DNA of 64,000 bases from assembly GCF_049584895.1 (NCBI RefSeq), contig NZ_JBAUYR010000001.1, positions 321 through 64,320 on the forward strand. Reading direction: 5' to 3'. The position numbers and the translations under genes are program-made. Positions 10,404 through 31,072 of this stretch are shown in pieces. Position 1 is the first letter of the stretch; every line of letters starts with the position of its first letter. The notes beneath the pieces were generated by a model. It had not been told where the DNA came from and did no database searches. It saw only the letters and a program-made list of their open reading frames with translations. Source of the DNA: Candidatus Binatus sp. GTDB lineage: Bacteria; Desulfobacterota; Binatia; Binatales; Binataceae.

Positions 10404-10412
10404 AGATTCCCC

Positions 10413-11444: not shown

Positions 11445-11462
11445 CGGGTTATAGCCAGTTCC

Positions 11463-12182: not shown

Positions 12183-12200
12183 GTTCCACCTGGCAAAGTC

Positions 12201-14408
12201 TCAAGGATGGTCGAAGGCGACTATGTCTTCAAGTGCAGGTGAAGATGAAATCGCGTGTGCCGCAAGCCTGCCGGAAATGACGGCCGCTTCGACGCATCCT
12301 GCATCCAGCCCGCACGTCGTCCAGTCGCCCGCTATTGTAAGGTTATCGTATGTGTTATCGAGTGGTGAGATTCGATATTTCTGGGTGCCGGGCAGCGAAA
12401 GGACATACCGTTCGCTGGGATTCACATTTGCCGTCCAATACTGGGAGTCAAAACGAGCTTCATCGCCGGCGCAAGCTCTACGGCCGGGTGCTTTCTCGTT
12501 AGAATCGATCAATAAGTCCCACTTGAATTTTCCCTGCTGCGTCGTCGCCTTAGGCCATAGCTGACCGATCTCACGATTGAGATAACGAATTGCGTTTTCC
12601 CGCACCTCTAATCGCCGCTGCACGAGGTAATTGTCAGCAGACACTTCGCGCGGCGATAGAGGATCTTTCAGTACGCTGCAGAAGTAAGCGATGGCCTTTG
12701 GGCTTACCTTCCACCGCTCCTCGCGGATCAGATGGCTCATGTCCGCCCAGGTCTCGAAGGGTTGCACGAATGCCGACAGCGCCAGCGGTGGGTCGTTCCA
12801 TCCTAGCTGTTCCATATCTTCGCGAAGCCAGATCTGATACGCTTGGGTGTTAACAGTTTTCAAATGCTTCACCATATCGCGCCAGCGCTCATCGCGTTCT
12901 ATAAGCTCTTGACACACATATGGAATAGCTCCCAATCCCACTCCCAGCACGACGAAATCGAAATCTTCGGCCACACGCAAGATCCTTGTCGCGATGCGTC
13001 TGCGGTCCCAATGCGATTCAAAATCCCGTTTTTCGCTTTCGAAACTACTGCCGTCGATCAACTGCGAGTAGTCTGGCCGCGACGGCCAACACGGTAGTCC
13101 GTCTACGTCGATCAGCGGTTCGTATTCCTTTCCGTTTCTGACTTTTGCCTGGACATCGAACTCCAACGCTTTGACGTAGGCGCGCTCTCCCGGCGCAAGA
13201 TCCGCGGGATCCGCCAACCTAACTCTTTCCAAGCGATGGAAAAATCTGAAACCTACTCCCCGCTTTTTGAGTAACTCGTACATCGGCGCAAAGACTGTGT
13301 CTCCCATGCCGGCATGCATCTTCCAAAAGATCGCGCCGCGCGAGCTGAATAGCATTCGCAATGCGCCGCGTAGCGCAACTCCCGCACCGTGTCGCGGACG
13401 CTGATAGTCGCCATTCTCATAGGCGAAAACCAGATCGTAAGCTCCGCGGATAAATGGCGACTCGAGCGACTTGTCCGACGCGCCGTTGATTCGCAACCAC
13501 TCGCGAAAGTCGTAGTCGTTGATCGCATCGAAACCTCGCGGATCCGAAATCAGCCCGAAGCGCAGAATCCCGCGCATCGATGCCATCGCCAAATCGATTC
13601 CTTGCCATAACACAAGCAACTCGGGGTCGTTCTCAATCATCGCCTCGATTTGACGGCGAGCACTCGATGCTATGACTTCCAGAAGCTGCGCGATCCCATC
13701 TAATGGATAAGTCAAACGCGGGGCAAGCAGCGTCTCGAGCATTTCGACTGCTTCGATCAGGCCGGCGGTCGTCGCAATCAGGCCTAACCTCAGGAGGCGT
13801 GCTATACGCTTAGCAGGATCATCAGCGGATTCGCCACTGTTCGGCATTGACTTATGCGACGGTCCCGCTTGGTAAGTGGCGCCCCCTTCGTTTGTCGAAG
13901 TTCTGCCGCTTCGGCCCGCTTGCACCGCGAGCAGCAGCGTCCGCACGATGCTGGCTGTACGCGCGAGATAGGATGTGACGGTAAATGGATCGTTCTCGTC
14001 GATAGGATCACCAGGGAGGCCGTCGCCTGGGGGGAAGTACGATAAAAAATTCCAATAGGTGCCGTTGCGCGACCGCTTGGCGAGGCCGATGAAGGGCGCT
14101 GGCGAGAATGCGTCGCGCCAATCTGCGATTCTGCATTTGCGCCGATCGCGCTTCAACTCCACGTAGCATTCGCGTATCAGCCGAAATGCATTCTCGTAGG
14201 ATCCCATCCATAGGTGAAGCCCGTGTTCTTCGATTCTATCGGCTGGACCGCGCCCCGAAGCTCCTTTGCCGCCAAGTCGCCAGCCGAGTTGATAGATTGT
14301 TACCTGGTATTTGCCCTTGTGCGCGGGGCGGCTCAGTTCGAAAGCAGCGGAGATCGCAGCGCATCCGCCACCTATGACGGCAACTCTGATCGGCTTCTGT
14401 TTGGGCAA
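12201..14408 (-). CDS. FAD/NAD(P)-binding oxidoreductase, phytoene-desaturase/HpnE-like (COG3349-type) with large insertions
   Basis: 735 aa with a TTG start and GAGGAA RBS. It has the dinucleotide motif IRVAVIGGGCAAISAAFEL, then RLGGK and EHGLHLWMGSYENAFRLIRE (compare EHGLH.FFGAY.N in plant-type desaturases). The C-terminal flavin motif is LTIAGDWT.CGLDAGCVEAAVISGRLAA. Confidence 0.75.
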   Translation of the reverse strand: MPKQKPIRVAVIGGGCAAISAAFELSRPAHKGKYQVTIYQLGWRLGGKGASGRGPADRIEEHGLHLWMGSYENAFRLIRECYVELKRDRRKCRIADWRDAFSPAPFIGLAKRSRNGTYWNFLSYFPPGDGLPGDPIDENDPFTVTSYLARTASIVRTLLLAVQAGRSGRTSTNEGGATYQAGPSHKSMPNSGESADDPAKRIARLLRLGLIATTAGLIEAVEMLETLLAPRLTYPLDGIAQLLEVIASSARRQIEAMIENDPELLVLWQGIDLAMASMRGILRFGLISDPRGFDAINDYDFREWLRINGASDKSLESPFIRGAYDLVFAYENGDYQRPRHGAGVALRGALRMLFSSRGAIFWKMHAGMGDTVFAPMYELLKKRGVGFRFFHRLERVRLADPADLAPGERAYVKALEFDVQAKVRNGKEYEPLIDVDGLPCWPSRPDYSQLIDGSSFESEKRDFESHWDRRRIATRILRVAEDFDFVVLGVGLGAIPYVCQELIERDERWRDMVKHLKTVNTQAYQIWLREDMEQLGWNDPPLALSAFVQPFETWADMSHLIREERWKVSPKAIAYFCSVLKDPLSPREVSADNYLVQRRLEVRENAIRYLNREIGQLWPKATTQQGKFKWDLLIDSNEKAPGRRACAGDEARFDSQYWTANVNPSERYVLSLPGTQKYRISPLDNTYDNLTIAGDWTTCGLDAGCVEAAVISGRLAAHAISSSPALEDIVAFDHP

Positions 14409-16946: not shown

Positions 16947-17124
16947 CTCGAAGACAAGCCGATCTTACGACAGACTTCCCATCGAGACCACGAACGTCTG
17001 CAAGGCCCGGAGACGGAGCTACGGAGCACCCTTGATCGACCGCTCCTCCGCTTAACTTGATAGCCCCGTGCTGCTTCCGCCGTCCGCGCAGGGTGTGGTA
17101 GTAACCGAGGCCACAGGAGACCCG

Positions 17125-20100
17125 ATGCGCTGTTCGTCCTGCAACTACGACAACCCCGCCGACGCCTCGTTTTGCGAGGGATGCGGAGCGAAGCTGGGGT
17201 TGATTTGCCCGGTGTGTAAAGCGTCGGTGAGTCCTGGAGCGCGATTCTGCAAGAAGTGTGGAACTGCGATTGACCCCACAAAAGCCGCTGCCTCCACGAC
17301 CGTTTTTTCGCCTAAATCTCAAATCATAGTCACCGCCGATGGCGCGGCGCCCGAAGCAATCGACGGCGAGCGCAAGACGGTCACGGCGCTGTTCGCCGAT
17401 ATCAAGGGATCGACCGAACTCGAGCAGGATTTAGACCCCGAGGAGGCGCGCACGATTGTAGACCCGGCGCTGAAGCTTATGATCGATGCGGTCCATCGCT
17501 ACGATGGCTACGTCGTGCAAAGCACCGGCGACGGCATCTTTGCGATCTTTGGTGCACCGGTAGCTCACGAAGATCATCCGCAGCGCGCGCTCTACGCCGC
17601 GCTCAGGATGCAAGAAGAACTAAAGCGTTATTCGGCAAGATTGCGCGAGGCCGGCAACCTGCCGATCGAAGCGCGCGTCGGCGTGAACACTGGCGAAGTA
17701 GTAGTGAGGTCGATCTCGACCGGCGGTGGTCATACTGAATACACGCCGATCGGGCATACGACCAATCTCGCGTCGCGAATGCAGGCGCTCGCGCCTACAG
17801 GCTCGATCGCAATCAGCGAGCAGGCGCGCAAGCTGGTTGATGGCTATTTTGCGCTGAAGCCGCTCGGACCGACTAAAGTCAAAGGCGTCAGCGAGCCAGT
17901 CAATGTTTACGAGGTGACTGGTCTCGGACCGCTGCGTACGCGCCTGCAACGCTCTGTGGGTCGCGGGTTGTCAAAGTTCGTTGGGCGGCAGGCCGAGATG
18001 GACGCCCTCAAGCGCGCGGCGGAGCAGGCCAAGGCGGGCCGCGGGCAGATCGTCGCCACGATGGCGGAGGCCGGCACCGGGAAGTCACGGCTCTTTTTCG
18101 AATTCAAAGCGAAGAACCAGTCGGGCTGGATGGTGCTCGAAACGTTCTCAGTGTCGCACGGCAAGGCATCGCCATATCTTCCAGTACTCGATCTCCTCCA
18201 CGGTTATTTCCACATCGCGGCCGAAGATGATCCGAGGACCCGACGTGAGAAGGTAAATGGGCGGATTGTCACGCTCGATCCCGCCCTGGAGGACACCCGC
18301 CCGTATTTGTTCAGTCTGCTTGGAATCGTCGACGGTGACGATCCGCTCTCGCAGATGGGCGCACCGGTGAAGCGCCGCCGGACTCTCGATGCCATCAAAC
18401 GCATCATCCTGCGGGAATCGCTGAATCAGCCGCTGATGGTGATCTTCGAGGATCTCCATTGGATCGACGAGGCGACACAGGAATTTCTGAATCTGCTGGC
18501 CGACTCGATTGGGACTGCGAAGATTCTGTTGTTAGTTAATTACCGGCCCCAATACTCGCATCAATGGGGTTCCAGGACTTACTACACGCAACTTCGGCTC
18601 GATCCGCTCGGCCAGGACTCCGCGGAAGAGATGTTGTCCGCCCTGCTCGGGAGTGGCGTGGACCTCGCGCAACTCAAGCGGGTAATCATAGAAAAGACCG
18701 AGGGCAATCCTTTCTTCATGGAGGAGACCGTCCAGGTCTTGCTCGACGAAGGCGCGCTGCTGCGCAACGGCGCGATTCACCTCACGCGGCCGATAGCAGA
18801 ATTGAAGATTCCACCGACGGTCCAGGGAATCCTCGCCGCGCGCATTGATCGCCTGCCGCACGATGCCAAGGAATTACTGCAAACGCTGTCAGCAATTGGA
18901 CGGGAATTTCCGCTGTCCTTGATCCGCGCCGCGTTCCCCAAGCCGGAGGAGGAGCTTAACCGGACGCTGGATGATCTCCAGCTCGGCGAATTCATCTACG
19001 AACAGCCCGCGGTCGGAGATACCGAATACATTTTCAAGCACGCACTCACCCAGGAAGTCTCCTATAACTCTATCCTCCATGAGCGTCGCAAGCATTTGCA
19101 CGAATGCATCGGCGCTGCGCTTGAGAAGCTGCACTCAAGCTCCATCGACGACCATATTGACGGACTAGCGCACCACTATGGCAGAAGCGGCAACTCGCTG
19201 AAGGCGCTCGAATACCAGGAGCGGGCAGGCAGGCAAGCAGTTCAGCGCTCGGCTTATGGCGAGGCGACTCGAAACTTCACCGACGCTCTGGAATTTCTTC
19301 AGCGGCTACCGCCGAGCGCCGCACGCGACCAACGAGAATTCGTCCTGCAAACCAGCTTGGGACCGGTACTCATGGCGACAAGAGGATGGTCAGCGCAGGA
19401 AACTGAATGGGCCTTTCGTCGCGCGGAGGAACTCGCCGAGATCGGAGGTACTCCCGAGCAGCGTTTCGCACTGCTTGTGGGTTTGTTCGGAATCTTCTAT
19501 GTCGGTGGCAATTTGACGGCTGCCCGCGAGTGGTTGAAGGAAATTCTGGAGTTCACCAAGGAGTACCCGCAGCCCGCGTTCGTCCTCGAGACCTGTCATC
19601 ATGAGTGGTCGGCTGCGCTCTCGGCCGGAGAGTTGGACGCTGCCCAGCAGCACGTCGATCGTGGGCTGGCGCTCTACGAGGCGCAACTCCGCTCGGTTCC
19701 CATACCGCTCTATACCGCGCACCACCCCGCGGTATGTGGTCACGGCTGGGGCGCTCTCGTCTTGTGGCTGCACGGCTTTTCCGATGCCGCGCGGCAGCAC
19801 GCGAACCGGTCCATTTCACTCGCGCAGGAACTTGAAGATCCCCTTTCCCTCGCCTGGGCTCTAAGCACCAGAGCACTCGTTCACCAAGTCATGCGAGAAG
19901 CGCAGCCTGCTCTGGAAGTGGCTGAGGCCGCGATAACCAAAGCTGAGGAAATGGGTTTCCTCCACGTTCTGTGGAACGCGCGAATCGCGAAAGGTTGGGC
20001 ATTGGCCGAGCTTGGCAGAACAGAAGAAGGAGTGGCGCAGATTCACGAAGCGATTGCCGCCCTGTCTGCTGTCCGAGCGGAGTTGTGGCTCACACAGGAT

Positions 20101-20496
20101 TTGGCGATCCTCGCCGAAGTCTATGCGGGTGCCAGGCGGTTCGACGAAGGTCTCAAGACGGTCGCGGAGGCTTTGGAGCTCGCACAGCGGAGTGGCGAGG
20201 CTTTCTGGGAAGCCGAGATACATCGGCTTCGCGGCGAGTTACTGATCCGGCAAGACCCTTTAGATCGTGTGGGAACCAAACAGTGCTTTGAGCTGGCGAT
20301 TCAGACCGCGCGCAAGCAGGGGGCGAAATCGCTTGAGTTACGCTCGACCACCAGCCTCGCGCGATTGCTGCGCGACAGCAATCGACGCGATGAAGCGCGC
20401 ACGATGCTCGCCGAAATCTACGACTGGTTCACTGAAGGCTTCGACACCGCAGACCTGAAGGACGCCAAGGCGCTGCTCGATGAACTCGGTTCGTAA
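17125..20496 (+). CDS. double-zinc-ribbon / class III adenylate-guanylate cyclase / STAND ATPase / TPR protein
   Basis: The ATG at 17125 follows AGGAGA. The zinc ribbons read CSSCNYDNP..FCEGCG...CPVCKA...FCKKCG. The cyclase core reads ERKTVTALFADIKGSTEL...VQSTGDGIFAIFGAP...VGVNTGEVV. The P-loop is AEAGTGKSRLFFEF, followed by VIFEDLHWIDEAT and a TPR-like C-terminus. Confidence 0.8.
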   Translation: MRCSSCNYDNPADASFCEGCGAKLGLICPVCKASVSPGARFCKKCGTAIDPTKAAASTTVFSPKSQIIVTADGAAPEAIDGERKTVTALFADIKGSTELEQDLDPEEARTIVDPALKLMIDAVHRYDGYVVQSTGDGIFAIFGAPVAHEDHPQRALYAALRMQEELKRYSARLREAGNLPIEARVGVNTGEVVVRSISTGGGHTEYTPIGHTTNLASRMQALAPTGSIAISEQARKLVDGYFALKPLGPTKVKGVSEPVNVYEVTGLGPLRTRLQRSVGRGLSKFVGRQAEMDALKRAAEQAKAGRGQIVATMAEAGTGKSRLFFEFKAKNQSGWMVLETFSVSHGKASPYLPVLDLLHGYFHIAAEDDPRTRREKVNGRIVTLDPALEDTRPYLFSLLGIVDGDDPLSQMGAPVKRRRTLDAIKRIILRESLNQPLMVIFEDLHWIDEATQEFLNLLADSIGTAKILLLVNYRPQYSHQWGSRTYYTQLRLDPLGQDSAEEMLSALLGSGVDLAQLKRVIIEKTEGNPFFMEETVQVLLDEGALLRNGAIHLTRPIAELKIPPTVQGILAARIDRLPHDAKELLQTLSAIGREFPLSLIRAAFPKPEEELNRTLDDLQLGEFIYEQPAVGDTEYIFKHALTQEVSYNSILHERRKHLHECIGAALEKLHSSSIDDHIDGLAHHYGRSGNSLKALEYQERAGRQAVQRSAYGEATRNFTDALEFLQRLPPSAARDQREFVLQTSLGPVLMATRGWSAQETEWAFRRAEELAEIGGTPEQRFALLVGLFGIFYVGGNLTAAREWLKEILEFTKEYPQPAFVLETCHHEWSAALSAGELDAAQQHVDRGLALYEAQLRSVPIPLYTAHHPAVCGHGWGALVLWLHGFSDAARQHANRSISLAQELEDPLSLAWALSTRALVHQVMREAQPALEVAEAAITKAEEMGFLHVLWNARIAKGWALAELGRTEEGVAQIHEAIAALSAVRAELWLTQDLAILAEVYAGARRFDEGLKTVAEALELAQRSGEAFWEAEIHRLRGELLIRQDPLDRVGTKQCFELAIQTARKQGAKSLELRSTTSLARLLRDSNRRDEARTMLAEIYDWFTEGFDTADLKDAKALLDELGS

Positions 20497-21051: not shown

Positions 21052-22161
21052 CTATCCGGCGACGCGCCCGGCGACGGCAACGCCCTTGTGTCCCTCGCGC
21101 TCAGCGATCTCGCGTCGCACGAGGGGGATCAGTTCGCGGCCATAGTCGATAGCGTCTTCAAGCGGATCGAAACCACGAATCAGAAAAGTCGTAACGCCAA
21201 GGTCGTAGTAGGCGAGCATTGATTCTGCGACTTGCTCAGGCGTCCCGACCAGCGCGGTCGTATTACCGCGCGCGCCGGTCGCCGCGGCTACCGCGGTCCA
21301 CAGCCGCTGGTCGAGCACTTCACCCTCCGCGGCCGCAGCCAGCAATCGTTGCGAGCCAACGGCGCCGGGAGTTTTCGCCGGTGCTCCCGACATCGCTTGC
21401 CCGCGGATTTCACTGATCGTTTCTATGATTCGTCGAGCGCGCGCCCACGCCGCATCTTCTGTGGATGCCAGAATTGGACGGGTTGACAGGCTGAATCTCA
21501 CCGTACGTCCATGTCGCGCGGCCGATGCGCGCACGCGCGCGATCGTTTTCGCTGCCTCTGCCAAGGGCTCACCCCACAGGGCGTAAACGTCGGCATGCTT
21601 TCCCGCGATTGCAATCGCCGCATCCGAGGAACCGCCGAAGTAGATCGGTATGTGAGGCTTCTGAAGCGGCTTCACGTCCGAGAACGAGCGGGTAAACTTG
21701 TAGTACTCGCCCTCGTGATCGATTGGCTTGTCCGCCGTCCAGATGCGGCGAAGGATTTCGACATACTCGTCGGTGCGCTCGTAGCGCTCGTCATGCGTGA
21801 TGAAATCGCCGTCTTTGCGCTGTTCGCCGTCGTCGCCGCCCGAGATGATATGCACCGCGAGCCGGCCGCCGCTGAAATGATCGAGCGTCGCGAGCTTGCG
21901 CGCGGCGACCGTCGGCGCGACGAAGCCGGGACGATGCGCCAGCATCAGGCCGAGCTTTTCCGTCACGAACGCGGCGTACTGCGCGACGATAAACCCGTCG
22001 GCGCCGTTGGAAAAGTATCCGATGAGTATCCGGTCGAAGCCTGACTCCTCGTGCGCCTGCGCGAAGCGCCGCACGTAGTCGACATCGATCGCCGGTCCCC
22101 GCGGCGGGTGAATCTCCGATGCGGGTTGCGTGCCGATCATCCCGATGAACTCGACGCTCAT
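21052..22161 (-). CDS. LLM-class flavin-dependent oxidoreductase (SsuD/[14 protein letters not shown] monooxygenase family)
   Basis: The start was moved to the internal ATG at 22161 (MSVEFIGMIG), which has AGGAGA upstream. This gives 370 aa with typical LLM blocks: RILIGYFSNGADG, HRPGFVAPT.AARK.ATLDHFSGGRL, IPIYFGGSS and LVGTPEQVAESMLAYYDLGVTTFLIRGFDP. Confidence 0.8.
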   Translation of the reverse strand: MSVEFIGMIGTQPASEIHPPRGPAIDVDYVRRFAQAHEESGFDRILIGYFSNGADGFIVAQYAAFVTEKLGLMLAHRPGFVAPTVAARKLATLDHFSGGRLAVHIISGGDDGEQRKDGDFITHDERYERTDEYVEILRRIWTADKPIDHEGEYYKFTRSFSDVKPLQKPHIPIYFGGSSDAAIAIAGKHADVYALWGEPLAEAAKTIARVRASAARHGRTVRFSLSTRPILASTEDAAWARARRIIETISEIRGQAMSGAPAKTPGAVGSQRLLAAAAEGEVLDQRLWTAVAAATGARGNTTALVGTPEQVAESMLAYYDLGVTTFLIRGFDPLEDAIDYGRELIPLVRREIAEREGHKGVAVAGRVAG

Positions 22162-22291
22162 GGACGCTCTCCTTCGCTGGCGGTCGAAGCTAACGCTCAG
22201 CCTGCGGCGAGCGCTTCCGGCTGCCAGGCTGGTCGCCGAATTGGCAGTTTCGGAAACAGCAACTCTGCCACATAGTACGCTTCTTCCTTCC

Positions 22292-22408
22292 CGGATAACC
22301 CGAAAGCACGAACGTGTCGATACCGAGATCGAGGTACTCCTCGAAGCGTCGCGACAGAGTTTTAGGATCTCCGCCCAGCGTGGTCCCTGCTCCTCCGCGA
22401 ACGAGACC
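22292..22408 (-). pseudogene. remnant of the C-terminus of an SsuD-type alkanesulfonate monooxygenase
   Basis: The frame of ORF 22190-22831 reads [39 protein letters not shown]. This closely parallels the E. coli SsuD C-terminus ([14 protein letters not shown]...EYAALGIDSFVLSGYP). No intact upstream body is present. Confidence 0.45.
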
Positions 22409-22545
22409 AGGTAGCGTCCGTCGCTGTGAGTGTTCGGCTTGTGCTCGCGATCGATGAGCAAACGGCCGCTCATGGGTGATCGCCAGTTCGCTCGCGGCGA
22501 TGACGCGGCGCGGCGTGAACGATCCGCCTCGCTGGCGGTAGATGC

Positions 22546-22743
22546 GAATTGCAGCTCGCGCTCGACCTGGTGCCGTAGTATCCGCAGCGTCGCATCGAGC
22601 TTGTGACCGACGAAGTAATCGACTCCTTCCTCGGTGAAATCCGCCAGGCCGAAATGGGTCGGAAAGAGGGCCGCGAACAGCCCGTCGATGATTTCGCGGA
22701 GCGCTTCGCGCGACGGCATCTCGATGATCGCACCGTCGCGCAT
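22546..22743 (-). pseudogene. remnant of the N-terminal region of an EpsC-type serine O-acetyltransferase
   Basis: The translation is [57 protein letters not shown]. This matches the PSREA..II..L...LFP..FG N-terminal helix region of long-form CysE. No hexapeptide-repeat body follows. Confidence 0.35.
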
Positions 22744-22870
22744 GCGCTCCTGGGATTTCCCCGGTGACGCTCGTAGTTCGGCGACGATTCGGCCCAGATC
22801 CCATCGCGCGCCCCAAGCGCTCCAACTTCACTTCACTACATCCCGGTAGCTGGCAAAAACTCGACTGCCG

Positions 22871-23491
22871 TTACTGTCTGAGGGTGGACCCCACCAGCGT
22901 CCGCAGGAAGTGATCGACTTTATCTGCCGGGCAGCGGGTAAATTTCAGCTGCGCGATCATGTGGGCCGAGCCGACTATTAATCGCGCATCGTCTTCGGCC
23001 TCGTCATCGATGATTCCGCGCTCGTGGCGCCAGCGACGAATGGTGTTGGCGATGATCGCTACTATTCTTTCCTGAAATTCCAGATAGTGCGGCCAGATCT
23101 CTTCGCGTATCGCAGTACTCCAATCCAGCCAGACGCGCGCATAGTCGGTATGGGTCTCGACTGAATCGGCAAACGCCTGCGCATGAGCGAGTACAATCCG
23201 GGGAGCGGCGCCGCCGCCTGAATGAATCGTTACAGCCATCTCGGTCAGAAATCGCGCGACCTCATCGAGCACCGCCATCACCAGGGCTTCGCGGGTCGGG
23301 AAGTAGAAGAACACGGTCGGGACGGATACGCGCGCCTCCCTGGCTATTTCGGCGTGATGAGCGCCCCCCAGGCCGCGACGGGCGAAGACCACGATCGCGC
23401 ACTTCAGCAGTTGCGGCCGGCGCTCGGCTGGATCGAGTCGGCGCGCCCTGACACGTTTCGTCGAAGATTTCCGTTCCACTTTTTTCACCAT
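22871..23491 (-). CDS. TetR/AcrR family transcriptional regulator
   Basis: The HTH reads RRPQLLKCAIVVFARRGLGGAHHAEIAREARVSVPTVFFYFPTREAL. The start was placed at MVKKVERK (23491), because the longer ORF (to 23515) would run through the divergent promoter and palindrome. Confidence 0.8.
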   Translation of the reverse strand: MVKKVERKSSTKRVRARRLDPAERRPQLLKCAIVVFARRGLGGAHHAEIAREARVSVPTVFFYFPTREALVMAVLDEVARFLTEMAVTIHSGGGAAPRIVLAHAQAFADSVETHTDYARVWLDWSTAIREEIWPHYLEFQERIVAIIANTIRRWRHERGIIDDEAEDDARLIVGSAHMIAQLKFTRCPADKVDHFLRTLVGSTLRQ

Positions 23492-23498
23492 ATCAGCT

Positions 23499-23528
23499 AT
23501 TGACAATACTATCAATATCTCCTATATT
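23499..23528 (+). promoter_or_regulatory. near-consensus sigma70 promoter overlapped by an imperfect 18-nt palindrome (candidate TetR operator)
   Basis: TTGACA lies at 23500-23505, followed by a 17-nt spacer and TATATT at 23523-28, 33 nt before the ATG at 23561. ATTGACAATACTATCAAT (23499-23516) matches its own reverse complement at 14 of 18 positions. Confidence 0.45.
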
Positions 23529-23560
23529 CCGAGCAACCAAACTTTCGAGCGAGGTCATCC

Positions 23561-24751
23561 ATGTCAAATGCATCACGGGTCGAATCGCTGAGACCGTTGC
23601 CACCTTCGCCTTCGATGAATGAAGAGGCGGTGGCTACGTACGAGTCCGAGTTCAAACAGTACGCCACCAAGTGGGCCGAAATCCTCGACCGCAACGCGGA
23701 GCGGATGAAGAGGGGTTCCTACTCGTTGCATTGGATGAACACCGACAAGGCGTCGTGGGGCAAGCGCGCAAAGCCATCGTCGCGCGGACTTACCTACACC
23801 GACATCAACCACGTGCCTGGTTACGGTCTGATCCCGGAGAAGGCGACCTGGCTGAACTTCGCAGCGCGCGGCTCGGTTCGCGACGAGTACGCAGCCGAAA
23901 TGCCGATCGTTGATAACTACACGCTGGTGAATCGCGACGAGTCATGGGCTGACAACGTCGTGACGCTGTACGAGGAAGCGAAGGCGCGCCAGTGGAACGC
24001 GACTCGCGACATCCCGTGGAGCGAGCTCGAACGCTTGCCCGACGATCTCGAGAAAGCGACTTGCCAGCTCTGCACCTTTCTCACCGAGGTCGAATTCGTT
24101 GCGGGCGACTTCCCGGCGAAGTGGCTCTATCGAATCCCGCAGGACTTCCTGGAAGTGAAGAGCTTCCTTGTGACGCAGTTGATGGACGAGGCGCGTCATC
24201 AGGAGGTCTTCCGCAAGCGTGCGATTGCCGGCGGCGGTCTGTTGCATGCGTCGCCCGGTTTCGAGTGGGCTCTCAAGGCGATCATCGACGCGCCAACGCA
24301 TACGATGGGAACCTTCCTGTTGAACCTGCTCGGCGAAGGCTTGGTGCTTTCGATTTTCCGTTCGGGCGAGATGATCGCCAAGACTCACGTGGATAAGGAA
24401 ATCTTCCGGCGCTGCCTGCAGGACGAGGCGCGTCACGTTTCTTACGGGGTGTTGGAACTCAAGAACTACCTTGATCACGCTCCCGATCGCCCGGCGGCTA
24501 TCGAGGAGATGCATCGGTTTGCCGACGTCGGAGAGCAGGTGATCCTCACATCTTTCACCGAGGCCGCGCTGGTGGAGCCCGTTGCGATTCTGCTCGGCGG
24601 CGGACTCGACAAGATCGATCAAGGCATGGAAGGCCAGGGGCGGCTCTGGAAGATGTCGGTCGAGGAGTATCTGCAGCGATGCGATCGCGCGGGATTCAGC
24701 CGCCGCGAACGCTGCACGATCCCGCTGGAATCACCATGGGGACAAAACTGA
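23561..24751 (+). CDS. ferritin-like diiron-carboxylate oxygenase (family unassigned)
   Basis: 396 aa with four ligand helices in the classical order E...ExxH...E...ExxH: TFLTEVEFVAG, QLMDEARHQEVF, LLGEGLVLSIF and CLQDEARHVSYG. An N-terminal extension of about 130 aa is of unknown function. Confidence 0.7.
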   Translation: MSNASRVESLRPLPPSPSMNEEAVATYESEFKQYATKWAEILDRNAERMKRGSYSLHWMNTDKASWGKRAKPSSRGLTYTDINHVPGYGLIPEKATWLNFAARGSVRDEYAAEMPIVDNYTLVNRDESWADNVVTLYEEAKARQWNATRDIPWSELERLPDDLEKATCQLCTFLTEVEFVAGDFPAKWLYRIPQDFLEVKSFLVTQLMDEARHQEVFRKRAIAGGGLLHASPGFEWALKAIIDAPTHTMGTFLLNLLGEGLVLSIFRSGEMIAKTHVDKEIFRRCLQDEARHVSYGVLELKNYLDHAPDRPAAIEEMHRFADVGEQVILTSFTEAALVEPVAILLGGGLDKIDQGMEGQGRLWKMSVEEYLQRCDRAGFSRRERCTIPLESPWGQN

Positions 24752-25236
24752 TGGAAGCACAGGCTATCACTGAGCAGCAGCGCGCGATTGCATTCCCGAC
24801 CAGCGAGTGGTTTGAGCGACTCGCGCAGCTGATGAAAATAAACAGCACTCTGCACGAGCATCTTGGATACATCGACTGTGTTGCGCAGTTCACCGTGCTC
24901 GACGGCGGACTCGGCGGGAAGCCGTGGAGTGTGCAGGTCACGTTCGAGGAATTCGAGGCGACCGATGTGCGCGAAGCCGGCGCGGTTGACGTCGCGCGCG
25001 CCGACTTCACATTGGAGGCGTCGCTCGCGACGTGGCGCGAAATGATCGAGGTTATCGCGCGGGGTCGCGGGCGCCCCGACCTGACTCATACGCTCAACTA
25101 TCTGAGCCATACCGGCACGCCGATACGCGTGTGGTCCGAAGATCCGCTGCGCAAGGATTTATTCTTCCGCTACAACCAGAGCCTGCAGGAGTTCATCAAC
25201 GCGTCGGCCGCCTTTCGCACGATCTTTGAGGGCTAG
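24751..25236 (+). CDS. SCP2-like (sterol/lipid-carrier fold) small protein, putative
   Basis: The ATG overlaps the upstream stop by 1 nt (TGATG). It is 161 aa. WFERLAQLMK...FTVLDGGLGGKPWSVQVTF...ADFTLEASLATWREMI follows the SCP2 pattern (f.l.d..g.w.l....ad..l..s...w..l). Confidence 0.45.
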   Translation: MEAQAITEQQRAIAFPTSEWFERLAQLMKINSTLHEHLGYIDCVAQFTVLDGGLGGKPWSVQVTFEEFEATDVREAGAVDVARADFTLEASLATWREMIEVIARGRGRPDLTHTLNYLSHTGTPIRVWSEDPLRKDLFFRYNQSLQEFINASAAFRTIFEG

Positions 25237-25239
25237 CAA

Positions 25240-25524
25240 ATGGCTCACAAGCCGGGACACTTCTATATCGACGAGACCTGCATCGGATGCGGTGCATGCG
25301 ATCACGCCTGTCCCGGCAAGGTAGATGCGATCTACCGGGTGGAAGACGACTTCCTAGGACGATTCGCGATCGTGCTCGAAGAGTGCATCGACTGCGGCTT
25401 CTGCGTTCCACTGTGCCCGGTCGATTGCATTCATGACGCGCGCAAGGAAGGCATCATCGAGGGTAGTGGTGGATACACTCGCATCAAGGAACTCCAGGCA
25501 TGGGCCCGCGCCCGCGCCTTATGA
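25240..25524 (+). CDS. 2x[4Fe-4S] ferredoxin
   Basis: 94 aa with two cluster motifs, CIGCGACDHACP and CIDCGFCVPLCP. It starts 3 nt after the preceding gene. Confidence 0.85.
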   Translation: MAHKPGHFYIDETCIGCGACDHACPGKVDAIYRVEDDFLGRFAIVLEECIDCGFCVPLCPVDCIHDARKEGIIEGSGGYTRIKELQAWARARAL

Positions 25525-25834
25525 CAGCAGCCTAATGAGGGCACTATCCGCCGCTGATGCCCGTAACCTTTCATCGATGCCTCCTGGTCGCAGCAAGCGC
25601 CGCGCGTTTCAGAGGTTCTAATATCACGGTCTGATTGCCTCTTTATGCACAGGTTAGAGAGCTGCAGACGCCTGACCCGGCTCGACCTTCTTTAGAAAGA
25701 GCATGAGCGTACTCGCGCTGCATGCGGGTCAGCTTGCAACTATGCGAGTGCCGAGGGTATTCGTCTCTTCAAACCTGCCCTTCGCAAGACCGAAGAGTAG
25801 CTAGAATCCATCCTCTGAAAGTGCTGTTGGGGAA

Positions 25835-28800
25835 TTGAGTTTGTTCAAGCGAGTATTGATTGCCAACCGAGGTGAAATCGCGATCCGCGTCGCGCGCGCC
25901 GCGTCGGCGCTCGGGCTGGAGTCGGTCAGTGTATACGCCCCGGCTGACGCACTCTCGCTCCATATCCGCGTTACGACCGAGTCGCGCGAGATTGGCAGCT
26001 CGCGCGGGCCGTCGAGCGATCCGGTGCGCGCCTATCTCGACATCGAAGCGCTGATCGAGGCCGCCAAGGCCACTCGCTGCGACAGCGTGCATCCCGGCTA
26101 CGGCTTCTTGTCCGAGAATACCAGCTTCGCCAAGCGATGCCTTGAAGAGGGTATCGCCTTCATCGGGCCGCGTCCCGAGACGCTGGCGCTGTTCGGCGAC
26201 AAGACCAAGGCGCGCGCTCTGGCCCGCTCACTCGACATTCCGATCATTCCAGGCAGTTCCACAGCCTTGGCGAGCGTCGAGGATGCCTTGGCGGTCAGCA
26301 AGACGATCGGCTATCCGGTCATGCTGAAAGCGGCAGGAGGCGGCGGCGGCCGGGGTATGCGCGTCGTCGCAAGCGCCGACGAAATGTCAGCGGCGTTGGC
26401 CAGATGCCGCAGCGAAGCTCTGGCGGCGTTCGGCGACGACTCAGTGTTTGTCGAGAAGCTGGTTGCGCGGCCACGGCATATCGAGGTCCAGATCCTGGCC
26501 GACAGTCACGGAAACATCGTTCATCTCTACGAACGCGATTGCTCGGTCCAGCTTCGAAATCAGAAAGTTGTCGAGATCGCGCCGGCTCCGGGGCTGGAGG
26601 CTGGCCTTCGGCGACGCTTGCTGGAAGACGCGATTCGCCTCGCGCGCGCTGCTGGCTTTGTGAACGCCGGCACCATCGAGTTCCTGGTCAACCCGGAGCG
26701 CGCCGAACACTTTTTCATCGAGTGCAATCCCCGCATCCAGGTTGAGCACACCGTGACCGAGCAGGTTACGGGCATCGACCTGGTCGAGTCCCAATTCCGC
26801 ATCGCGGCGGGCGAGTCGCTGAAAACTCTCGGGATCCCGGATCAAGCCGCGGTCAAAACGCCGCGCGGTTTTGCCGTACAAGCGCGCATCGTCGCGGTCG
26901 GGCCCGGCGTACTGACCGCGTACAAGGAGCCGACGGGTCCCGGAGTGCGAGTCGATTCATCCGCATATCTCGGCTACGCGCCGCCGCCGCAATTCGATCC
27001 GATGTTCGCCAAGCTCATCTGCCAGTCGAACTCGACGCATTCGTTCGAGTCGGCACTCGACCACACGTTGCGCGCGCTGGATGAGTTCCACATCGCCGGT
27101 CTGCCGACCAATCTTCGACGACTGCGCGCAGTCCTCTCTCATCCGGCGGTACGGGCGGGCGACGCGCGGACCAGCTTTTTCTCCGAGTATCCCGAGCTGG
27201 CCGTGCCGACTGGTGCGGAGGCCTCCGCCTCGGGCTCAGTGGCGCTGCTCGAACAGCAGGCGACGGCTCTCCGCGGCGGCAAGAACGCGCTCGGCCTGTC
27301 GGCTGCACGGATCGCATCGGACAGCTTGGCCGTGCCGAGCGGCGAGGAAGGGGTCGAAAGCCCAATGGAGGGTGCGATCATCGAGCTCCCGGTGGAGGCC
27401 GGCGCTACGGTTGAGGCCGGTGCGACGCTAATGATCATCAGCGCCATGAAAATGGAAACCGCGATCACCGCACCCTGTGCCGGCGTCGTGACCGCGATCA
27501 GGCCCGCCGAGATCGGCGCCATTGTCGCGTCTGGTCAGATTGTCGCCACGATCGCTCCGGCTAAACGCGACAGTGACGCAGCCTCGCCACGCCGCTATGG
27601 CGACGATACCTGGGCGCCAATGCTCGCCGACGTGCAGACGTTGCAGGCGATCGCCCATCACCGCTTCGCGCCGGGGTCGACCGATCCGGGCGTGGTCCGC
27701 CAGCGCTCTCGCGGCAAGCTGACCTGCCGGGAGCGAATCGATCTGCTGCTCGACGCCGGCAGCTTTCGCGAGGTCGGGAGCCTCGCAGGCTTCGCAGACT
27801 ACGACGAAGATGGAAAGGTCGCGGGCTTCACGCCCGCCAACCATATCGGTGGCTGGGGCAAGATTGACCGCCGGACGGTCGTGGTATGCGCCGACGATTT
27901 CACCTCGCGCGGCGGGCATGCCGACGGCGCGATTGGCGGCAAGAGCGCGCATCTCGATCGGCTGTCGATCGACCTTCGGTGCCCGTCGATCCGATTGCTC
28001 GACGGCTCGTCAGGCGGCGGCAGCATCGCAGCCATGGTCCCCAAACAGCAGAAGGCCGGCGAGAGCAGCGCGCAGGAAAGCTCGGGCGCAATAGTCGCTG
28101 GCCGGCCCCGGGTGTCTGGCGAGGGTGGATCGTTCCTGCCGGGCCACCTCGGCAGCACTATGTACGTCGCGCAGCTTAGCCAGGTGCCGGTGGTCAATCT
28201 GCTGCTCGGCAGCGTAGTCGGCATCGGCGCTGCCAAGGCTGTGCTCGGCCATTTCTCGGTCATGGTGCGCGACATCGCGCAGCTGTTCGTGGCGGGACCG
28301 CCGGTGGTCAGGCACGCAATGGGTTACGACATCACGAAAGAGGAATTGGGCGGCTGGCATATCCATTGCCGGAACGGCTCGGTCGACAATCTCGCGGAGT
28401 CGGAGCAAGCGGCAGCTTCGATGACGAAGCGGTTCCTCTCCTACCTACCCTCGAGTGTCTACGAAGCGCCGCCTGTCCATGAGCCAAACCCAGCTGATCC
28501 GATTGACCGTCGGGAAGAAGAGCTGTTTACGATTGTTCCCCGCAAGCGCACCACGACCTTCGACATGCGCCGAGCCATCCGGTTGATGGGGGACCAAGGC
28601 TCGTTCTTCGAGATCGGGCCGCTGTGGGGTACCGACCAGATTGTTGGCTTCGTACGCTTCAACGGCTATCCCATGGGCGTCGTCGCATCTGACTCTCGGC
28701 ACGTCAATGGCGGCGCGCTAACGGCCGATGGTTGCGACAAGCTCAAGCGTCACCTCGACCTGTGCGACCTGTTCCATCTTCCCCTGCTGAACCTGATCGA

Positions 28801-29269
28801 CAATCCGGGGTTCGCGGTGGGCCTCGAGCACGAAATAGCCGGCACCATTCGCAAGGGTGGCGAGTGGATGATCGCATTCGCGCAGGTAGCAGTTCCGATC
28901 TTCACCGTCATTATGCGCCGCAGCTTTGGCGTCGCCGGCAACAACTTTGCAACGCCTCGCAGCGGCGCCAGTGCGCGCGTCGCGTGGCCCGCGGCTGACG
29001 TCGGCGGCATCCCGCCCGAAGGTGGCATCGAGGCCGCTTACAAACGCCAGCTTGCCGAGGCCGCCGATCCAGCAGCACTGCGAGCCGAGATCAATGCGCG
29101 TATCGAAAGCGCGCGGGGACCCATCGGGCCACTCAACCGGTTCCAGATGGAGGAAATGATCGACCCGCGCGACACACGGCGTTGGATTTGCGAATGGGTC
29201 GAGAATGCCTATCGCATCGTCACGCAACCCGCCTTGCTGGTGCCTCGAGCGCTGCAATTCAGGCCATAG
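25835..29269 (+). CDS. single-chain multidomain biotin-dependent acyl-CoA carboxylase (BC-linker-BCCP-CT; LCC-type)
   Basis: 1144 aa. The biotin carboxylase N-terminus reads KRVLIANRGEIAIRVARAA with an ATP-grasp (MLKAAGGGGGRGMRVV). The biotinyl-lysine motif is ISAMKMETAI. The C-terminal roughly 550 aa is a carboxyltransferase domain (GGWGKIDRRTVVVCADDFT..GG, LIDNPGF). The domain order matches the long-chain acyl-CoA carboxylase described from Mycobacterium avium subsp. paratuberculosis. Confidence 0.8.
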   Translation: MSLFKRVLIANRGEIAIRVARAASALGLESVSVYAPADALSLHIRVTTESREIGSSRGPSSDPVRAYLDIEALIEAAKATRCDSVHPGYGFLSENTSFAKRCLEEGIAFIGPRPETLALFGDKTKARALARSLDIPIIPGSSTALASVEDALAVSKTIGYPVMLKAAGGGGGRGMRVVASADEMSAALARCRSEALAAFGDDSVFVEKLVARPRHIEVQILADSHGNIVHLYERDCSVQLRNQKVVEIAPAPGLEAGLRRRLLEDAIRLARAAGFVNAGTIEFLVNPERAEHFFIECNPRIQVEHTVTEQVTGIDLVESQFRIAAGESLKTLGIPDQAAVKTPRGFAVQARIVAVGPGVLTAYKEPTGPGVRVDSSAYLGYAPPPQFDPMFAKLICQSNSTHSFESALDHTLRALDEFHIAGLPTNLRRLRAVLSHPAVRAGDARTSFFSEYPELAVPTGAEASASGSVALLEQQATALRGGKNALGLSAARIASDSLAVPSGEEGVESPMEGAIIELPVEAGATVEAGATLMIISAMKMETAITAPCAGVVTAIRPAEIGAIVASGQIVATIAPAKRDSDAASPRRYGDDTWAPMLADVQTLQAIAHHRFAPGSTDPGVVRQRSRGKLTCRERIDLLLDAGSFREVGSLAGFADYDEDGKVAGFTPANHIGGWGKIDRRTVVVCADDFTSRGGHADGAIGGKSAHLDRLSIDLRCPSIRLLDGSSGGGSIAAMVPKQQKAGESSAQESSGAIVAGRPRVSGEGGSFLPGHLGSTMYVAQLSQVPVVNLLLGSVVGIGAAKAVLGHFSVMVRDIAQLFVAGPPVVRHAMGYDITKEELGGWHIHCRNGSVDNLAESEQAAASMTKRFLSYLPSSVYEAPPVHEPNPADPIDRREEELFTIVPRKRTTTFDMRRAIRLMGDQGSFFEIGPLWGTDQIVGFVRFNGYPMGVVASDSRHVNGGALTADGCDKLKRHLDLCDLFHLPLLNLIDNPGFAVGLEHEIAGTIRKGGEWMIAFAQVAVPIFTVIMRRSFGVAGNNFATPRSGASARVAWPAADVGGIPPEGGIEAAYKRQLAEAADPAALRAEINARIESARGPIGPLNRFQMEEMIDPRDTRRWICEWVENAYRIVTQPALLVPRALQFRP

Positions 29270-29326
29270 TCCGCCGTAATGGATAATCTCTAACCAACGT
29301 AGTAAGACGGGCAAAGGAGACAGCCT

Positions 29327-29818
29327 ATGGCCCGGAAGAACCTCGGTGATGCCTTCGGCGGCAAGATCACCACCCTGGAAGAACAGCGCGCAATCTGGCG
29401 CGACGCCCTGCACCAGGACGCCATCTGGGAGGGACCGACGTTCGAGATCCCGGTGACGCTGATTGGGTACGAGGCCGCGAGCCGTTTTATGGAATTTCTG
29501 CTGAGCGTGGTTCCGCGCTTCAGCACAACGCCGGCAACGGTGTATCCCACAGCCGATCCGGATACCACCATCGTGGAATCATCGGGCGGTGGCGATACCG
29601 TGGACGGCGGCCGCTATACGCAGCGCTATTTCACCCTGATCACCATCAGAAACGGTCAGGCTTTCCGCATGCGCGAATACGTTAATCCATTCCAGACCTA
29701 CAAGAGCTTCGGGAAGGAGCGCTGGGAGCGTGTCGTCTCCGAGATTGCGGCGAAGTACAACCGGCCCTGGCCCGCGTCGCAACTCCCCGACCCAATCGTG
29801 TTGCCGCCACTCAGGTAA
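29327..29818 (+). CDS. NTF2/SnoaL-like fold protein (PhzA/B-like)
   Basis: 163 aa with a good RBS (AAGGAGA). The size and alpha+beta pattern (...RYFTLITIRNGQAFRMREYVNPF) fit the NTF2-like superfamily. The specific function is unknown. Confidence 0.55.
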   Translation: MARKNLGDAFGGKITTLEEQRAIWRDALHQDAIWEGPTFEIPVTLIGYEAASRFMEFLLSVVPRFSTTPATVYPTADPDTTIVESSGGGDTVDGGRYTQRYFTLITIRNGQAFRMREYVNPFQTYKSFGKERWERVVSEIAAKYNRPWPASQLPDPIVLPPLR

Positions 29819-29863
29819 ACGCCGTCGCCCGCCTCTAAAGCTTAATCTGAGACACTACCGCAA

Positions 29864-31072
29864 ATGGGAAGTCACCGCTCCAACGAAAACTATCCATCCG
29901 CCGACGTGGCCGAGTCGAACAGTCTTCTGGTTGCCCCGCTGCTACCTTTGATAGCAGGGCAGGCGGCTGAGGCCGACGCCACGCGGTCCGTCGCTCCGAC
30001 GGTGATCGCGGCGCTGAAGGGCAACGATGTTATGCGCATGTCAGCCGTCCGAGCCTTGGGCGGGCTTGAAAGTAGCGTAACCGCGATGGGACGAGAGCTG
30101 GAAGCAGTGGCCGCGGCCTGCGGCTCAACCGGCTGGTGTCTTTGGAACCACCTGTGTGTGTTCCATTTCTACTGCGGCCTTCTGGGTCCCGCGCATATCG
30201 GGTTGCTGCGCAGTATCACTGCCAACCGGCACTGGGTCTGCTTGCCGGCCGGCGCTGGGACCGGAGTGATTGGCAGAGTGGACGGGGATGAGGTCGTGCT
30301 GAACGGAATCGCCTCCTTTGGCTCCGGTGGCCGCTATTCGGACTATGCGGGCGTCACTTTCGTCTTCGAGGGCGAACGGCAGCCGCACTTGACCTTAGTG
30401 CGTACCGATCAGCAGGGCGTGCGCATCGACCCAACCTGGAAGGCAATGAGCCTTCGCGCCTCCGCGACTGATCACGTGCACTATGAAGAAGTGCGAGCAC
30501 CTCTCTCGGGGGTGGTGCCGTTCCCGTTGCCATACAGGGTTGCCTTCCGCGATCCGGCCTACGCAGTCATCGACGATCGCTATCGCGAGGATTGGGTGGC
30601 CCTTTCCGACCTTTGGCTCGGCTGTATGGCGGTGGGAGTCGCCGACGCGGCATTGAAGGACGCGTGCATAGGCATCCAAGGCCGAATCGCTATCATGGGA
30701 GTCAAGATGGTGGAGAGACCCACCATCCACGTAAATCTCGGCCATGCCGTCGCCCTGATCTACGCGGCGCGCGCGGCAGTCTATGACTCCTGCGCCGCGA
30801 CGGATGCTCGTATTGCGGCGCATCAGACTCCGACGGAGGGCGACTATTTGGAACAGCTCGGGGCCAGCATGATAGCTCTGCGCTTGTGCGACGAGGCCAT
30901 GCGGCTGATCCTGCGCGTGCTGGGCGGAAATGGTCTCCGAGAGGGGCAGTCCTTCGAACGCCGCTACCGTGATTTTCAGGCGATGCCTCTGCACATCAAC
31001 GCGCATCCTGATCGGGTGTCGGAACAACTTGGACGTCACGCGCTTGGCCTGGCGACCGAGAACCCGTTCTGA
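29864..31072 (+). CDS. acyl-CoA dehydrogenase family protein
   Basis: 402 aa. The C-terminal helical domain ...AMRLILRVLGGNGLREGQSFERRYRDFQAMPLHI is typical of ACAD and ACAD-like flavin monooxygenases. Confidence 0.7.
   Translation: MGSHRSNENYPSADVAESNSLLVAPLLPLIAGQAAEADATRSVAPTVIAALKGNDVMRMSAVRALGGLESSVTAMGRELEAVAAACGSTGWCLWNHLCVFHFYCGLLGPAHIGLLRSITANRHWVCLPAGAGTGVIGRVDGDEVVLNGIASFGSGGRYSDYAGVTFVFEGERQPHLTLVRTDQQGVRIDPTWKAMSLRASATDHVHYEEVRAPLSGVVPFPLPYRVAFRDPAYAVIDDRYREDWVALSDLWLGCMAVGVADAALKDACIGIQGRIAIMGVKMVERPTIHVNLGHAVALIYAARAAVYDSCAATDARIAAHQTPTEGDYLEQLGASMIALRLCDEAMRLILRVLGGNGLREGQSFERRYRDFQAMPLHINAHPDRVSEQLGRHALGLATENPF

Follow-up and report, generated by a model that had tools for sequence, protein, structure and literature searches.

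A four-gene cassette spans positions 22871-25524 of a 64,000-nucleotide stretch (hereafter, the window) of contig NZ_JBAUYR010000001.1 from Candidatus Binatus sp., an organism whose genome comprises 5.17 Mb. It is one copy of a discrete module that recurs across phyla. In this module, a TetR-family regulator gene faces an operon of three genes that encode a 396-amino acid ferritin-like protein, a 161-amino acid protein with a predicted SCP2 fold and a 2x[4Fe-4S] ferredoxin. In kind, the system is a known one: a ferritin-like diiron oxygenase with a ferredoxin, placed under a TetR repressor. It is set apart by the uncharacterised family to which the enzyme belongs, its obligatory partner of predicted SCP2 fold, a repressor of predicted LuxR/HapR type outside the vibrios and the behaviour of the four genes as a cassette. 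The favoured reading, to which a probability of roughly 60% is assigned, is that the module specifies a ligand-derepressed, ferredoxin-driven and O2-dependent hydroxylase or desaturase, whose substrate would be an aliphatic compound or lipid that the SCP2-fold protein holds. Searches of the literature on diiron enzymes, SCP2, ferredoxin, TetR, R2lox and DesT turned up no account of it, and BioE (PMC12704756), which is small, ADO-like and controlled by a GntR regulator, has no relation to the cassette.

The extent of the module was established by comparing 80 genome loci, in which the genes were located by tblastn. Their hosts are Binatia, Myxococcota, Gamma- and Alphaproteobacteria, Thermodesulfobacteriota and Actinomycetota (Mycobacterium), the taxon labels of metagenome-assembled genomes (MAGs) being the submitters' own. 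The SCP2-like gene is positioned directly downstream of the diiron gene in 78 of the 80 loci and the ferredoxin gene is present in 76, with all but one of the missing cases falling at the end of a contig. Measured against the proteins of the window, the enzyme is 66-99% identical, the SCP2-like protein 42-97%, the ferredoxin 65-98% and the TetR protein 45-94%; across phyla, enzyme orthologues keep 66-80% identity. Clustering of all open reading frames (ORFs) in the 80 loci revealed no fifth conserved gene, as no other family is present in more than 16 of them. At the DNA level, homology between the window and the nearest loci (75-91%) covers exactly 22873-25526, that is, from the stop codon of tetR to that of the ferredoxin gene, and the flanks are unrelated. 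Because the homology ends at these two stop codons, the unit includes neither the LLM gene next to it nor the carboxylase, SnoaL and ACAD genes that lie downstream.

The DNA signals that control the cassette (Table 1) are in agreement with the original prediction, which had described a near-consensus promoter overlapped by an 18-nucleotide palindrome and facing a divergent TetR gene; each is present in the sequence at the position given there, and the promoter was also recovered by a promoter scan. The spacer between tetR and the diiron gene is 69 bp. Here, the operon promoter consists of TTGACA (23500-23505), a 17-nucleotide spacer and TATATT (23523-23528), so that 11 of 12 consensus positions are matched, and the scan returned two promoter-like sites in 3.3 kb versus 0.6 expected. 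The palindrome, ATTGACAATACTATCAAT at 23499-23516, forms the centre of a 20-bp box (23498-23517), whose left half-site takes in the -35 hexamer. A longer tetR ORF that starts at a TTG codon would extend into the operator. The promoter predicted for tetR on the minus strand overlaps the start codon of that gene and is doubtful. The tight coupling noted for the three operon genes can be read directly: the TGA of the diiron gene and the ATG of the second gene share one nucleotide (TGATG, 24749-24753), and three nucleotides separate the end of the second gene (25236) from the ATG of the ferredoxin gene (25240).

Table 1. Features of the cassette and their positions in the window
Feature	Position	Strand	Description
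tetR	22871..23491	-	206 amino acids from ATG at 23491; divergent from the operon
Operator box TATTGACAATACTATCAATA	23498..23517		20-bp dyad, TATTGA-N8-TCAATA (predicted)
Sigma-70-type promoter of the three-gene operon	23500..23528	+	promoter scan and direct reading
Ferritin-like dimetal-carboxylate protein, 396 amino acids	23561..24751	+	uncharacterised family
SCP2-fold partner protein (predicted), 161 amino acids	24751..25236	+	AlphaFold2 and Foldseek
2x[4Fe-4S] ferredoxin, 94 amino acids	25240..25524	+	cysteine motifs and Pfam/NCBIfam

The regulator is predicted to be a TetR protein of the LuxR/HapR/SmcR type that acts on one operon through its box. It scores 37.5 bits on the Pfam TetR_N model and its best NCBIfam family is HapR/LuxR/OpaR (NF040929), with 93.8 bits over residues 17-180, which is below the equivalog cutoff of 350 bits; the next NCBIfam family reaches 43.9 bits only. 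The best matches in the PDB are OpaR, HapR, LuxR and SmcR, which align over their full length with E-values from 4e-29 to 1e-21, and every other TetR protein of known structure scores 6e-9 or worse. The recognition helix, VSVPTVFFYFPTREALV, is nearly identical to that of the Vibrio LuxR/HapR/SmcR/OpaR proteins, VSVATVFNYFPTREALV. Four of the 18 pocket residues listed for SmcR (PMC2859563) are identical in the TetR protein of the window, and a further seven are conservatively replaced.

The box is inherited together with the regulator. All 57 loci that carry the TetR gene have, upstream of that for the enzyme, a site that agrees with the dyad in 10 or more of its 12 half-site positions; of the 21 loci without the TetR gene, one has such a site. 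The consensus across loci is TATTGAcAatatTaTCAATA (TATTGAcA-N4-TaTCAATA), and the published SmcR box consensus is TTATTGATWWRWTWNTNAATAA (PMC2859563). When 53 distinct 22-bp boxes were compared to the latter, all but four matched it at 17-21 of the 22 positions. From 50 sites, a position weight matrix was derived, and the host genome was scanned with it. The box in the window scores 35.4 bits and the next best site, which is in a gene, 23.7 bits; this genome-wide scan gave no sign of a wider regulon, as it returned no other strong site and the runners-up are all inside genes. With a single strong box in the genome, the regulator is expected to be local and dedicated. Together, the co-inheritance of box and regulator and the uniqueness of the box strongly back the earlier suggestion that the TetR protein gates the operon. 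The closest TetR homologues outside the module (54-59% identical; loci L094-L097, from other Binatia) are orphans: they lack the box, and a diiron gene is not found within 5 kb. Genes in their neighbourhood encode a TrmA/RlmD-like methyltransferase (in two cases), a giant Big_5-repeat protein and a DUF2127 membrane protein.

The 396-amino acid protein carries the full E/ExxH/E/ExxH ligand set that had been read from it at the outset: E178, E210-x-x-H213, E259 and E289-x-x-H292 are invariant in an alignment of 41 orthologues. In a wider alignment, the set is intact in all ligand-bearing relatives, and many distant relatives are without ligands. E176 was considered as the first ligand and rejected; the assignment to E178 was made because E176 varies in ligand-intact relatives, in every one of which E178 is retained. 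An exact 15-nucleotide direct repeat, GGACGAGGCGCGTCA, at 24184-24198 and 24421-24435, encodes both of the DEARH metal-binding motifs (D209-H213 and D288-H292), one of which is found in each half of the four-helix bundle.

As judged by profile searches, the protein belongs to no characterised enzyme family, in keeping with the initial failure to place it among oxygenases of the BoxB, PaaA, AurF, MiaE or soluble methane monooxygenase type. No Pfam or NCBIfam cutoff is reached. At E-values up to 1, these scans return AurF (PF11583; 13.8 bits, E 0.032, cutoff 29.6), the R2 subunit of ribonucleotide reductase (RNR; PF00268; 11.8 bits, gathering cutoff 33.6) and R2lox (NF006200; 33.1 bits, cutoff 194, with residues 118-219 alone matching) and nothing else. 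At the same threshold, there is no Pfam or NCBIfam match to Coq7, PaaA, MiaE, bacterial multicomponent monooxygenases or acyl-acyl carrier protein (ACP) desaturase, and none to the rubrerythrin/erythrin models of Pfam. The best single-sequence match in the PDB is a VlmB homologue (6d9f/8wvr; E 6.5e-4), which improves to 2e-8 when a profile of the family is used, and GkR2lox, the R2lox protein of Geobacillus, then follows at 2e-7. An AlphaFold2 model built from 41 close homologues has a mean predicted local distance difference test score (pLDDT) of 61. With this model, which is of low confidence, Foldseek returned generic R2, desaturase, R2lox, ADO and PaaA folds, with E-values of at least 0.03 and TM-scores of 0.2-0.36, and these matches are used at the superfamily level only.

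Individual residues also set the enzyme apart from its nearest relatives. Residues 250-258 (GTFLLNLLG) are without tyrosine and L254 is invariant in the orthologue alignment. As no tyrosine is present within the nine residues preceding E259, the Tyr-Val ether cross-link of R2lox cannot form. The position of the radical tyrosine of RNR is occupied by an invariant phenylalanine, Phe217. The extra histidine ligand of AurF and CmlI, which we take to lie four residues before the glutamate of the second ExxH, corresponds to Cys285, and this position is Cys, Val or Ala in ligand-intact relatives. The N-terminal extension of about 130 residues that had been called novel is present (approximately 100 to 130 residues, and about 100 relative to R2lox), and neither does the region have a homologue in Pfam nor do its 132 residues alone match a structure in the PDB. 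It is not peculiar to this protein, however, as it is conserved family-wide from about residue 45-55 onwards; it therefore defines the family instead of being a local novelty.

The family so defined is large and unstudied, being without a Pfam or NCBIfam model, a solved structure or a paper. Clustering at 90% identity leaves approximately 2000 groups that match the enzyme, none with a name more specific than "ferritin-like domain-containing protein"; the best 120 of these are 72-97% identical to it. An exhaustive search of representatives at 50% identity produced 852 matches with E-values up to 1e-3, of which 102 are at 1e-30 or better.

Two readings of the dimetal site other than the favoured one were weighed. 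The match to the VlmB homologue, its improvement with the profile and the weak AurF scores in Pfam would suit an AurF/CmlI/VlmB-like N-oxygenase with an amine as its substrate, working as part of a small secondary-metabolite or xenobiotic pathway. This is very unlikely, since the AurF score is below cutoff, a cysteine occupies the position of the third histidine, a biosynthetic-cluster context is seen in none of the 80 loci and the SCP2 partner argues for a lipid substrate. Alternatively, the dimetal protein could be no oxygenase but a rubrerythrin-like, ferredoxin-dependent reductase or peroxidase that detoxifies lipid hydroperoxides or hydrophobic oxidants presented by the SCP2-fold protein. 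Such an enzyme would require no downstream pathway, as fits a self-contained detoxification unit, a low-potential ferredoxin would be its natural reductant, and some of the MAGs that bear the cassette are labelled as frequently anaerobic taxa. This explanation is nonetheless improbable: the rubrerythrin/erythrin models are not matched, a rubredoxin-like domain is absent and both the six-ligand site, formed by two E/ExxH sets, and the best profile matches point to the class of R2lox, AurF and desaturase.

The second protein of the operon is confidently predicted to adopt the SCP2 alpha/beta fold. Its AlphaFold2 model has a pLDDT of 88.6 and a predicted TM-score of 0.85, and the top Foldseek matches are all SCP2 or UbiJ-SCP2. 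These are led by Thermus TT1886 (1wfr; E 1.6e-5), followed by 2cx7 and UbiJ-SCP2 (6h6o), and include human SCP2. Foldseek probability is 1.00 for 1wfr, 2cx7, 6h6o, 1ikt and 2c0l, with TM-scores of up to 0.73. The SCP2-like pattern that had been noticed in this small protein is thus supported by structure prediction, even though its Pfam SCP2 score (PF02036; 12 bits, E 0.27) is below the cutoff of 21.3 bits, and a profile made from 39 homologues finds the SCP2 chains 1wfr and 2cx7 at an E-value of 0.01 only. The third protein proved to be the 2x[4Fe-4S] ferredoxin it was thought to be: it has two CxxCxxCxxxCP motifs, with cluster cysteines C14, C17, C20 and C24, and C49, C52, C55 and C59, it scores 42.1 bits on Pfam Fer4_21 (cutoff 35), it passes several Pfam Fer4 cutoffs and it reaches 51.9 bits on the NCBIfam model FdxA_fam.

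The association between the diiron and SCP2-like proteins extends to paralogues. The host genome encodes three diiron paralogues, which are 54%, 44% and 40% identical to the enzyme, and an SCP2-like gene is present beside each. On one contig (C15:41215-42216; L011 7730-10307), the order is diiron, SCP2, LLM monooxygenase. On another (C97:67297-69580; L012 11265-14121), it is SCP2, ligand-intact diiron, ligand-less diiron, where the last protein carries the changes E210A, H213L, E259A, E289A and H292Q and the pair resembles PaaA/PaaC. More distant diiron relatives are fused to, or adjoin, SnoaL/NTF2 hydrophobic-ligand domains. These neighbours of paralogues and relatives indicate that small proteins able to bind hydrophobic ligands are regular partners of the family.

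A constant neighbour of this kind could also be an obligate structural or effector subunit, similar to PaaB or MmoB, which gates O2 activation or bridges protomers and does not carry substrate. This view draws on the translational coupling of the two genes, on the SCP2-like gene that adjoins every diiron paralogue and on the C97 locus, where an active and a ligand-less diiron protein beside an SCP2-like gene recall PaaA/PaaC/PaaB. In addition, the second, canonical SCP2 gene of the actinobacterial loci could be the true carrier. Arguing for a carrier instead, the predicted fold is that of genuine lipid-binding SCP2 proteins, we know of no diiron-oxygenase effector with this fold and none of 390 retrieved proteins is a diiron-SCP2 fusion. 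The effector role is thus considered rather unlikely.

Further clues to the class of substrate come from sister loci and from R2lox. In other Binatia, HapR-like TetR genes, whose products are 45-52% identical to the regulator, are divergent from diiron genes of the AurF family (PF11583), with a TATTGA...TCAA-type box between them (L098 5543-6703, L099 5838-8994 and L102 5628-9904). On PF11583, the diiron proteins of these loci reach 56-72 bits, and their identity to the enzyme of the window is 26-29%. A FabF/B-like ketoacyl synthase gene is nearby in two of the sister loci, and a zinc-dependent alcohol dehydrogenase (zinc-ADH) gene is also found in one. DesT and FabR are TetR proteins that sense fatty-acyl thioesters, and Pseudomonas DesT controls desaturase genes; by analogy, the sister TetR/diiron/ketoacyl-synthase loci recall this logic. 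R2lox proteins, for their part, bind long-chain fatty acids. Haloarchaeal R2lox genes cluster with ferredoxin and sterol-carrier genes (PMC9314684), and the same paper, citing Kumar et al. 2020, gives an R2lox gene of the haloarchaeon Halorientalis hydrocarbonoclasticus as upregulated on hexadecane. Similarly, crude GkR2loxI lowered alkane levels and alkane oxidation was reported (PMC10867098). None of these clues pins down the substrate of the cassette.

In the favoured reading, a dimer of the LuxR/HapR-type TetR would bind to the single 20-bp box. Because the box contains the -35 hexamer, bound repressor would occlude the promoter, covering this hexamer and thereby excluding RNA polymerase, and it would probably control tetR as well. 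A hydrophobic ligand would free the repressor from the box. The operon would then supply a soluble, O2-activating dimetal (Fe/Fe or Mn/Fe) enzyme together with the SCP2-fold protein and the ferredoxin. The SCP2-fold protein would hold and deliver the hydrophobic substrate, which is most likely aliphatic (a fatty-acyl, alkyl or other lipid chain), and the ferredoxin, itself reduced by a housekeeping reductase, would provide the two electrons needed per turnover. Using these, the enzyme would hydroxylate or desaturate the aliphatic chain. Dependence on O2 is what we infer from the nearest structures and profiles, the VlmB homologue and GkR2lox, which are O2-activating enzymes. As to the type of reaction within this reading, hydroxylation of the chain and its desaturation are tentative to the same degree, and some other oxidation is a slightly likelier outcome than either.

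Several observations weigh against this reading. The cassette carries no reductase gene, and 2x[4Fe-4S] ferredoxins are, to our knowledge, unusual donors for O2-dependent diiron enzymes. A few of the carrier MAGs are labelled Thermodesulfobacteriota or Spirochaetales, taxa that are often anaerobic. The model of the enzyme is poor, so that it permits no statement on a substrate channel. The neighbouring SDR, Baeyer-Villiger monooxygenase (BVMO), zinc-ADH, LLM and PF10118 genes occur at about the background rate or are confined to one clade; being near background and phylogenetically non-independent, the SDR, BVMO, zinc-ADH and LLM neighbours identify no pathway. Finally, the link to ketoacyl synthase concerns a different, AurF-type diiron family and two loci from one taxonomic family.

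Of 121 Binatia genomes sampled, only 13 have an orthologue that reaches 75% identity or more, and phylum labels are mixed in the protein tree of the enzyme, except for a single actinobacterial clade; together, these observations suggest that the cassette has spread horizontally. In the window, no flanking terminal repeats were found at the cassette and its GC content is without anomaly, so that there is no sign of a defined mobile element here. A tblastn search of the plasmids in PLSDB found no orthologue, the sole match being a Xenorhabdus protein with 26% identity.

The enzyme, and indeed the whole trio at the protein level, is 100% identical among five Mycobacterium genomes (M. nebraskense DSM 44803, M. 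gordonae DSM 44160, M. scrofulaceum DSM 43992, M. helveticum and Mycobacterium sp. WUMAC-067). In these (loci L079-L083, approximately 1300-12400), the trio adjoins genes for a phage-type integrase and IS21 (Mu-transposase-like plus IstB), and downstream of it are a second SCP2-family gene, an SDR gene, a gene for a Baeyer-Villiger-type flavin monooxygenase and a PF10118 "metal-dependent hydrolase" gene. The mycobacterial copy has the appearance of an island that moved recently. In identical form, its SCP2-like protein occurs on 336 contigs, where it is recorded as "MULTISPECIES: hypothetical protein [Mycobacteriaceae]", and close variants from the same 90%-identity cluster occur in M. avium subsp. 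hominissuis and M. lentiflavum. The actinobacterial version is without the HapR-type TetR and the box, and the second SCP2-family gene that it adds scores 20.8 bits versus the Pfam cutoff of 21.3. As the hosts include cultured non-tuberculous mycobacteria, the module is experimentally tractable.

The mycobacterial copies bear on the comparison to Coq7 and UbiJ, which the original prediction had drawn. Coq7 is a ferritin-like diiron hydroxylase, and UbiJ-SCP2 is among the top Foldseek matches of the 161-amino acid protein. As logic, the parallel of a hydroxylase to which an SCP2-fold protein presents a lipid holds. It goes no further than that, because the cassette occurs in Mycobacterium, which uses menaquinone and not ubiquinone. 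Taken literally, the module would encode a quinone or isoprenoid ring hydroxylase, and this is scarcely credible: the enzyme has no Coq7 match at E-values up to 1 and thus no membership by sequence, the gene set is accessory (as its presence in 13 of the 121 Binatia genomes shows), it appears as a mobile island in a menaquinone user and control by an inducible repressor is atypical of cofactor biosynthesis.

The remaining genes in the neighbourhood appear to be separate from the cassette. A set of genes at 25835-31072, comprising a 1144-amino acid, single-chain BC-BCCP-CT carboxylase, SnoaL/PhzA-like (NTF2) and ACAD-fold genes, was considered as a source of partners and rejected; no synteny between this set and the cassette is seen in any related locus of the 80, including those with a diiron protein of 95-99% identity. 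Upstream of tetR, an ORF of 563 amino acids (21052-22870) is longer than its LLM monooxygenase domain, the Pfam match being within the last 382 residues. The large gene at 17068-20496, with zinc-ribbon, adenylate/guanylate cyclase, AAA_16 (STAND) and TPR domains, is unrelated to the cassette. In alphaproteobacterial copies (MAGs L076-L078, L088 and L091; approximately 8200-13200), genes for a NirB-type nitrite reductase and an assimilatory nitrate reductase follow the cassette and are probably an unrelated neighbouring cluster. An "open frame" of 1243 amino acids in another genome was discarded as a spurious high-GC frame.

The obligatory pairing of the enzyme with an SCP2-fold protein and a private ferredoxin suggests an unstudied oxidation of hydrophobic molecules, which would matter for biocatalysis and for the turnover of hydrocarbons and lipids in soils and sediments. 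In addition, a repressor with one box and one operon offers a simple system for finding the ligand class of the LuxR/HapR/SmcR family. For the quorum-sensing master regulators of Vibrio, no native ligand is known as of 2026 (PMC12977469). A bolder and rather doubtful proposal is that the cassette and the sister TetR/AurF-type pairs represent the ancestral job of this family, that of a ligand-sensing, local repressor of a lipid-oxidising dimetal enzyme, and that the lipid of the module belongs to the ligand class of the orphan Vibrio pocket. Were this so, the substrate or product of the diiron/SCP2 pair, plausibly fatty-acyl, would be of the class that fits that pocket, and the enzyme would itself be the founder of a new family, in which aliphatic substrates are hydroxylated or desaturated with the aid of a ferredoxin and an SCP2 protein.

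Set beside the Vibrio LuxR/HapR/SmcR/OpaR proteins, the regulator shows similarity over the full length and a nearly identical recognition helix, and its predicted dyad box of 20-22 bp closely resembles the SmcR consensus. It differs in that it is below the equivalog cutoff and is predicted to be a local, one-site regulator, whereas theirs are global, and in that its type occurs outside the Vibrionaceae, in Binatia, Myxococcota and other Proteobacteria. For the enzyme, AurF/CmlI/VlmB provides the best single-sequence structural match and has similar helix motifs in both halves of the site, and more distant relatives of the family reach the AurF cutoff; the enzyme itself does not, has Cys285 in place of the third histidine and is not surrounded by a biosynthetic gene cluster.

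The resemblance to R2lox (GkR2loxI, 4hr0; M. tuberculosis Rv0233, 3ee4) includes the ferritin-like fold, the six ligands in two E/ExxH sets, motifs of the DEA(R/K)H type and the phenylalanine at the position of the RNR radical tyrosine, and R2lox is among the closest profile matches (2e-7). In contrast to R2lox, the enzyme lacks the cross-link tyrosine, possesses an additional conserved N-terminal region of about 100 residues, scores 33 versus 194 bits on NF006200 and is accompanied by an obligate SCP2-like neighbour and a dedicated repressor of predicted HapR type. In the soluble acyl-ACP desaturase system (stearoyl-ACP delta-9 desaturase, ferredoxin and ACP), a diiron enzyme and a ferredoxin are likewise combined with a small carrier of aliphatic substrate, and desaturase structures are among the low-confidence Foldseek matches of the enzyme model. 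Here, the differences are the lack of a Pfam match at E-values up to 1, a 2x[4Fe-4S] ferredoxin in the cassette where the plant-type protein is [2Fe-2S], and a carrier of predicted SCP2 fold that would bind its ligand non-covalently, whereas ACP is phosphopantetheinylated. The cassette triad of dimetal enzyme, SCP2-fold protein and ferredoxin mirrors, as a gene set, the R2lox/ferredoxin/sterol-carrier clusters of haloarchaea.

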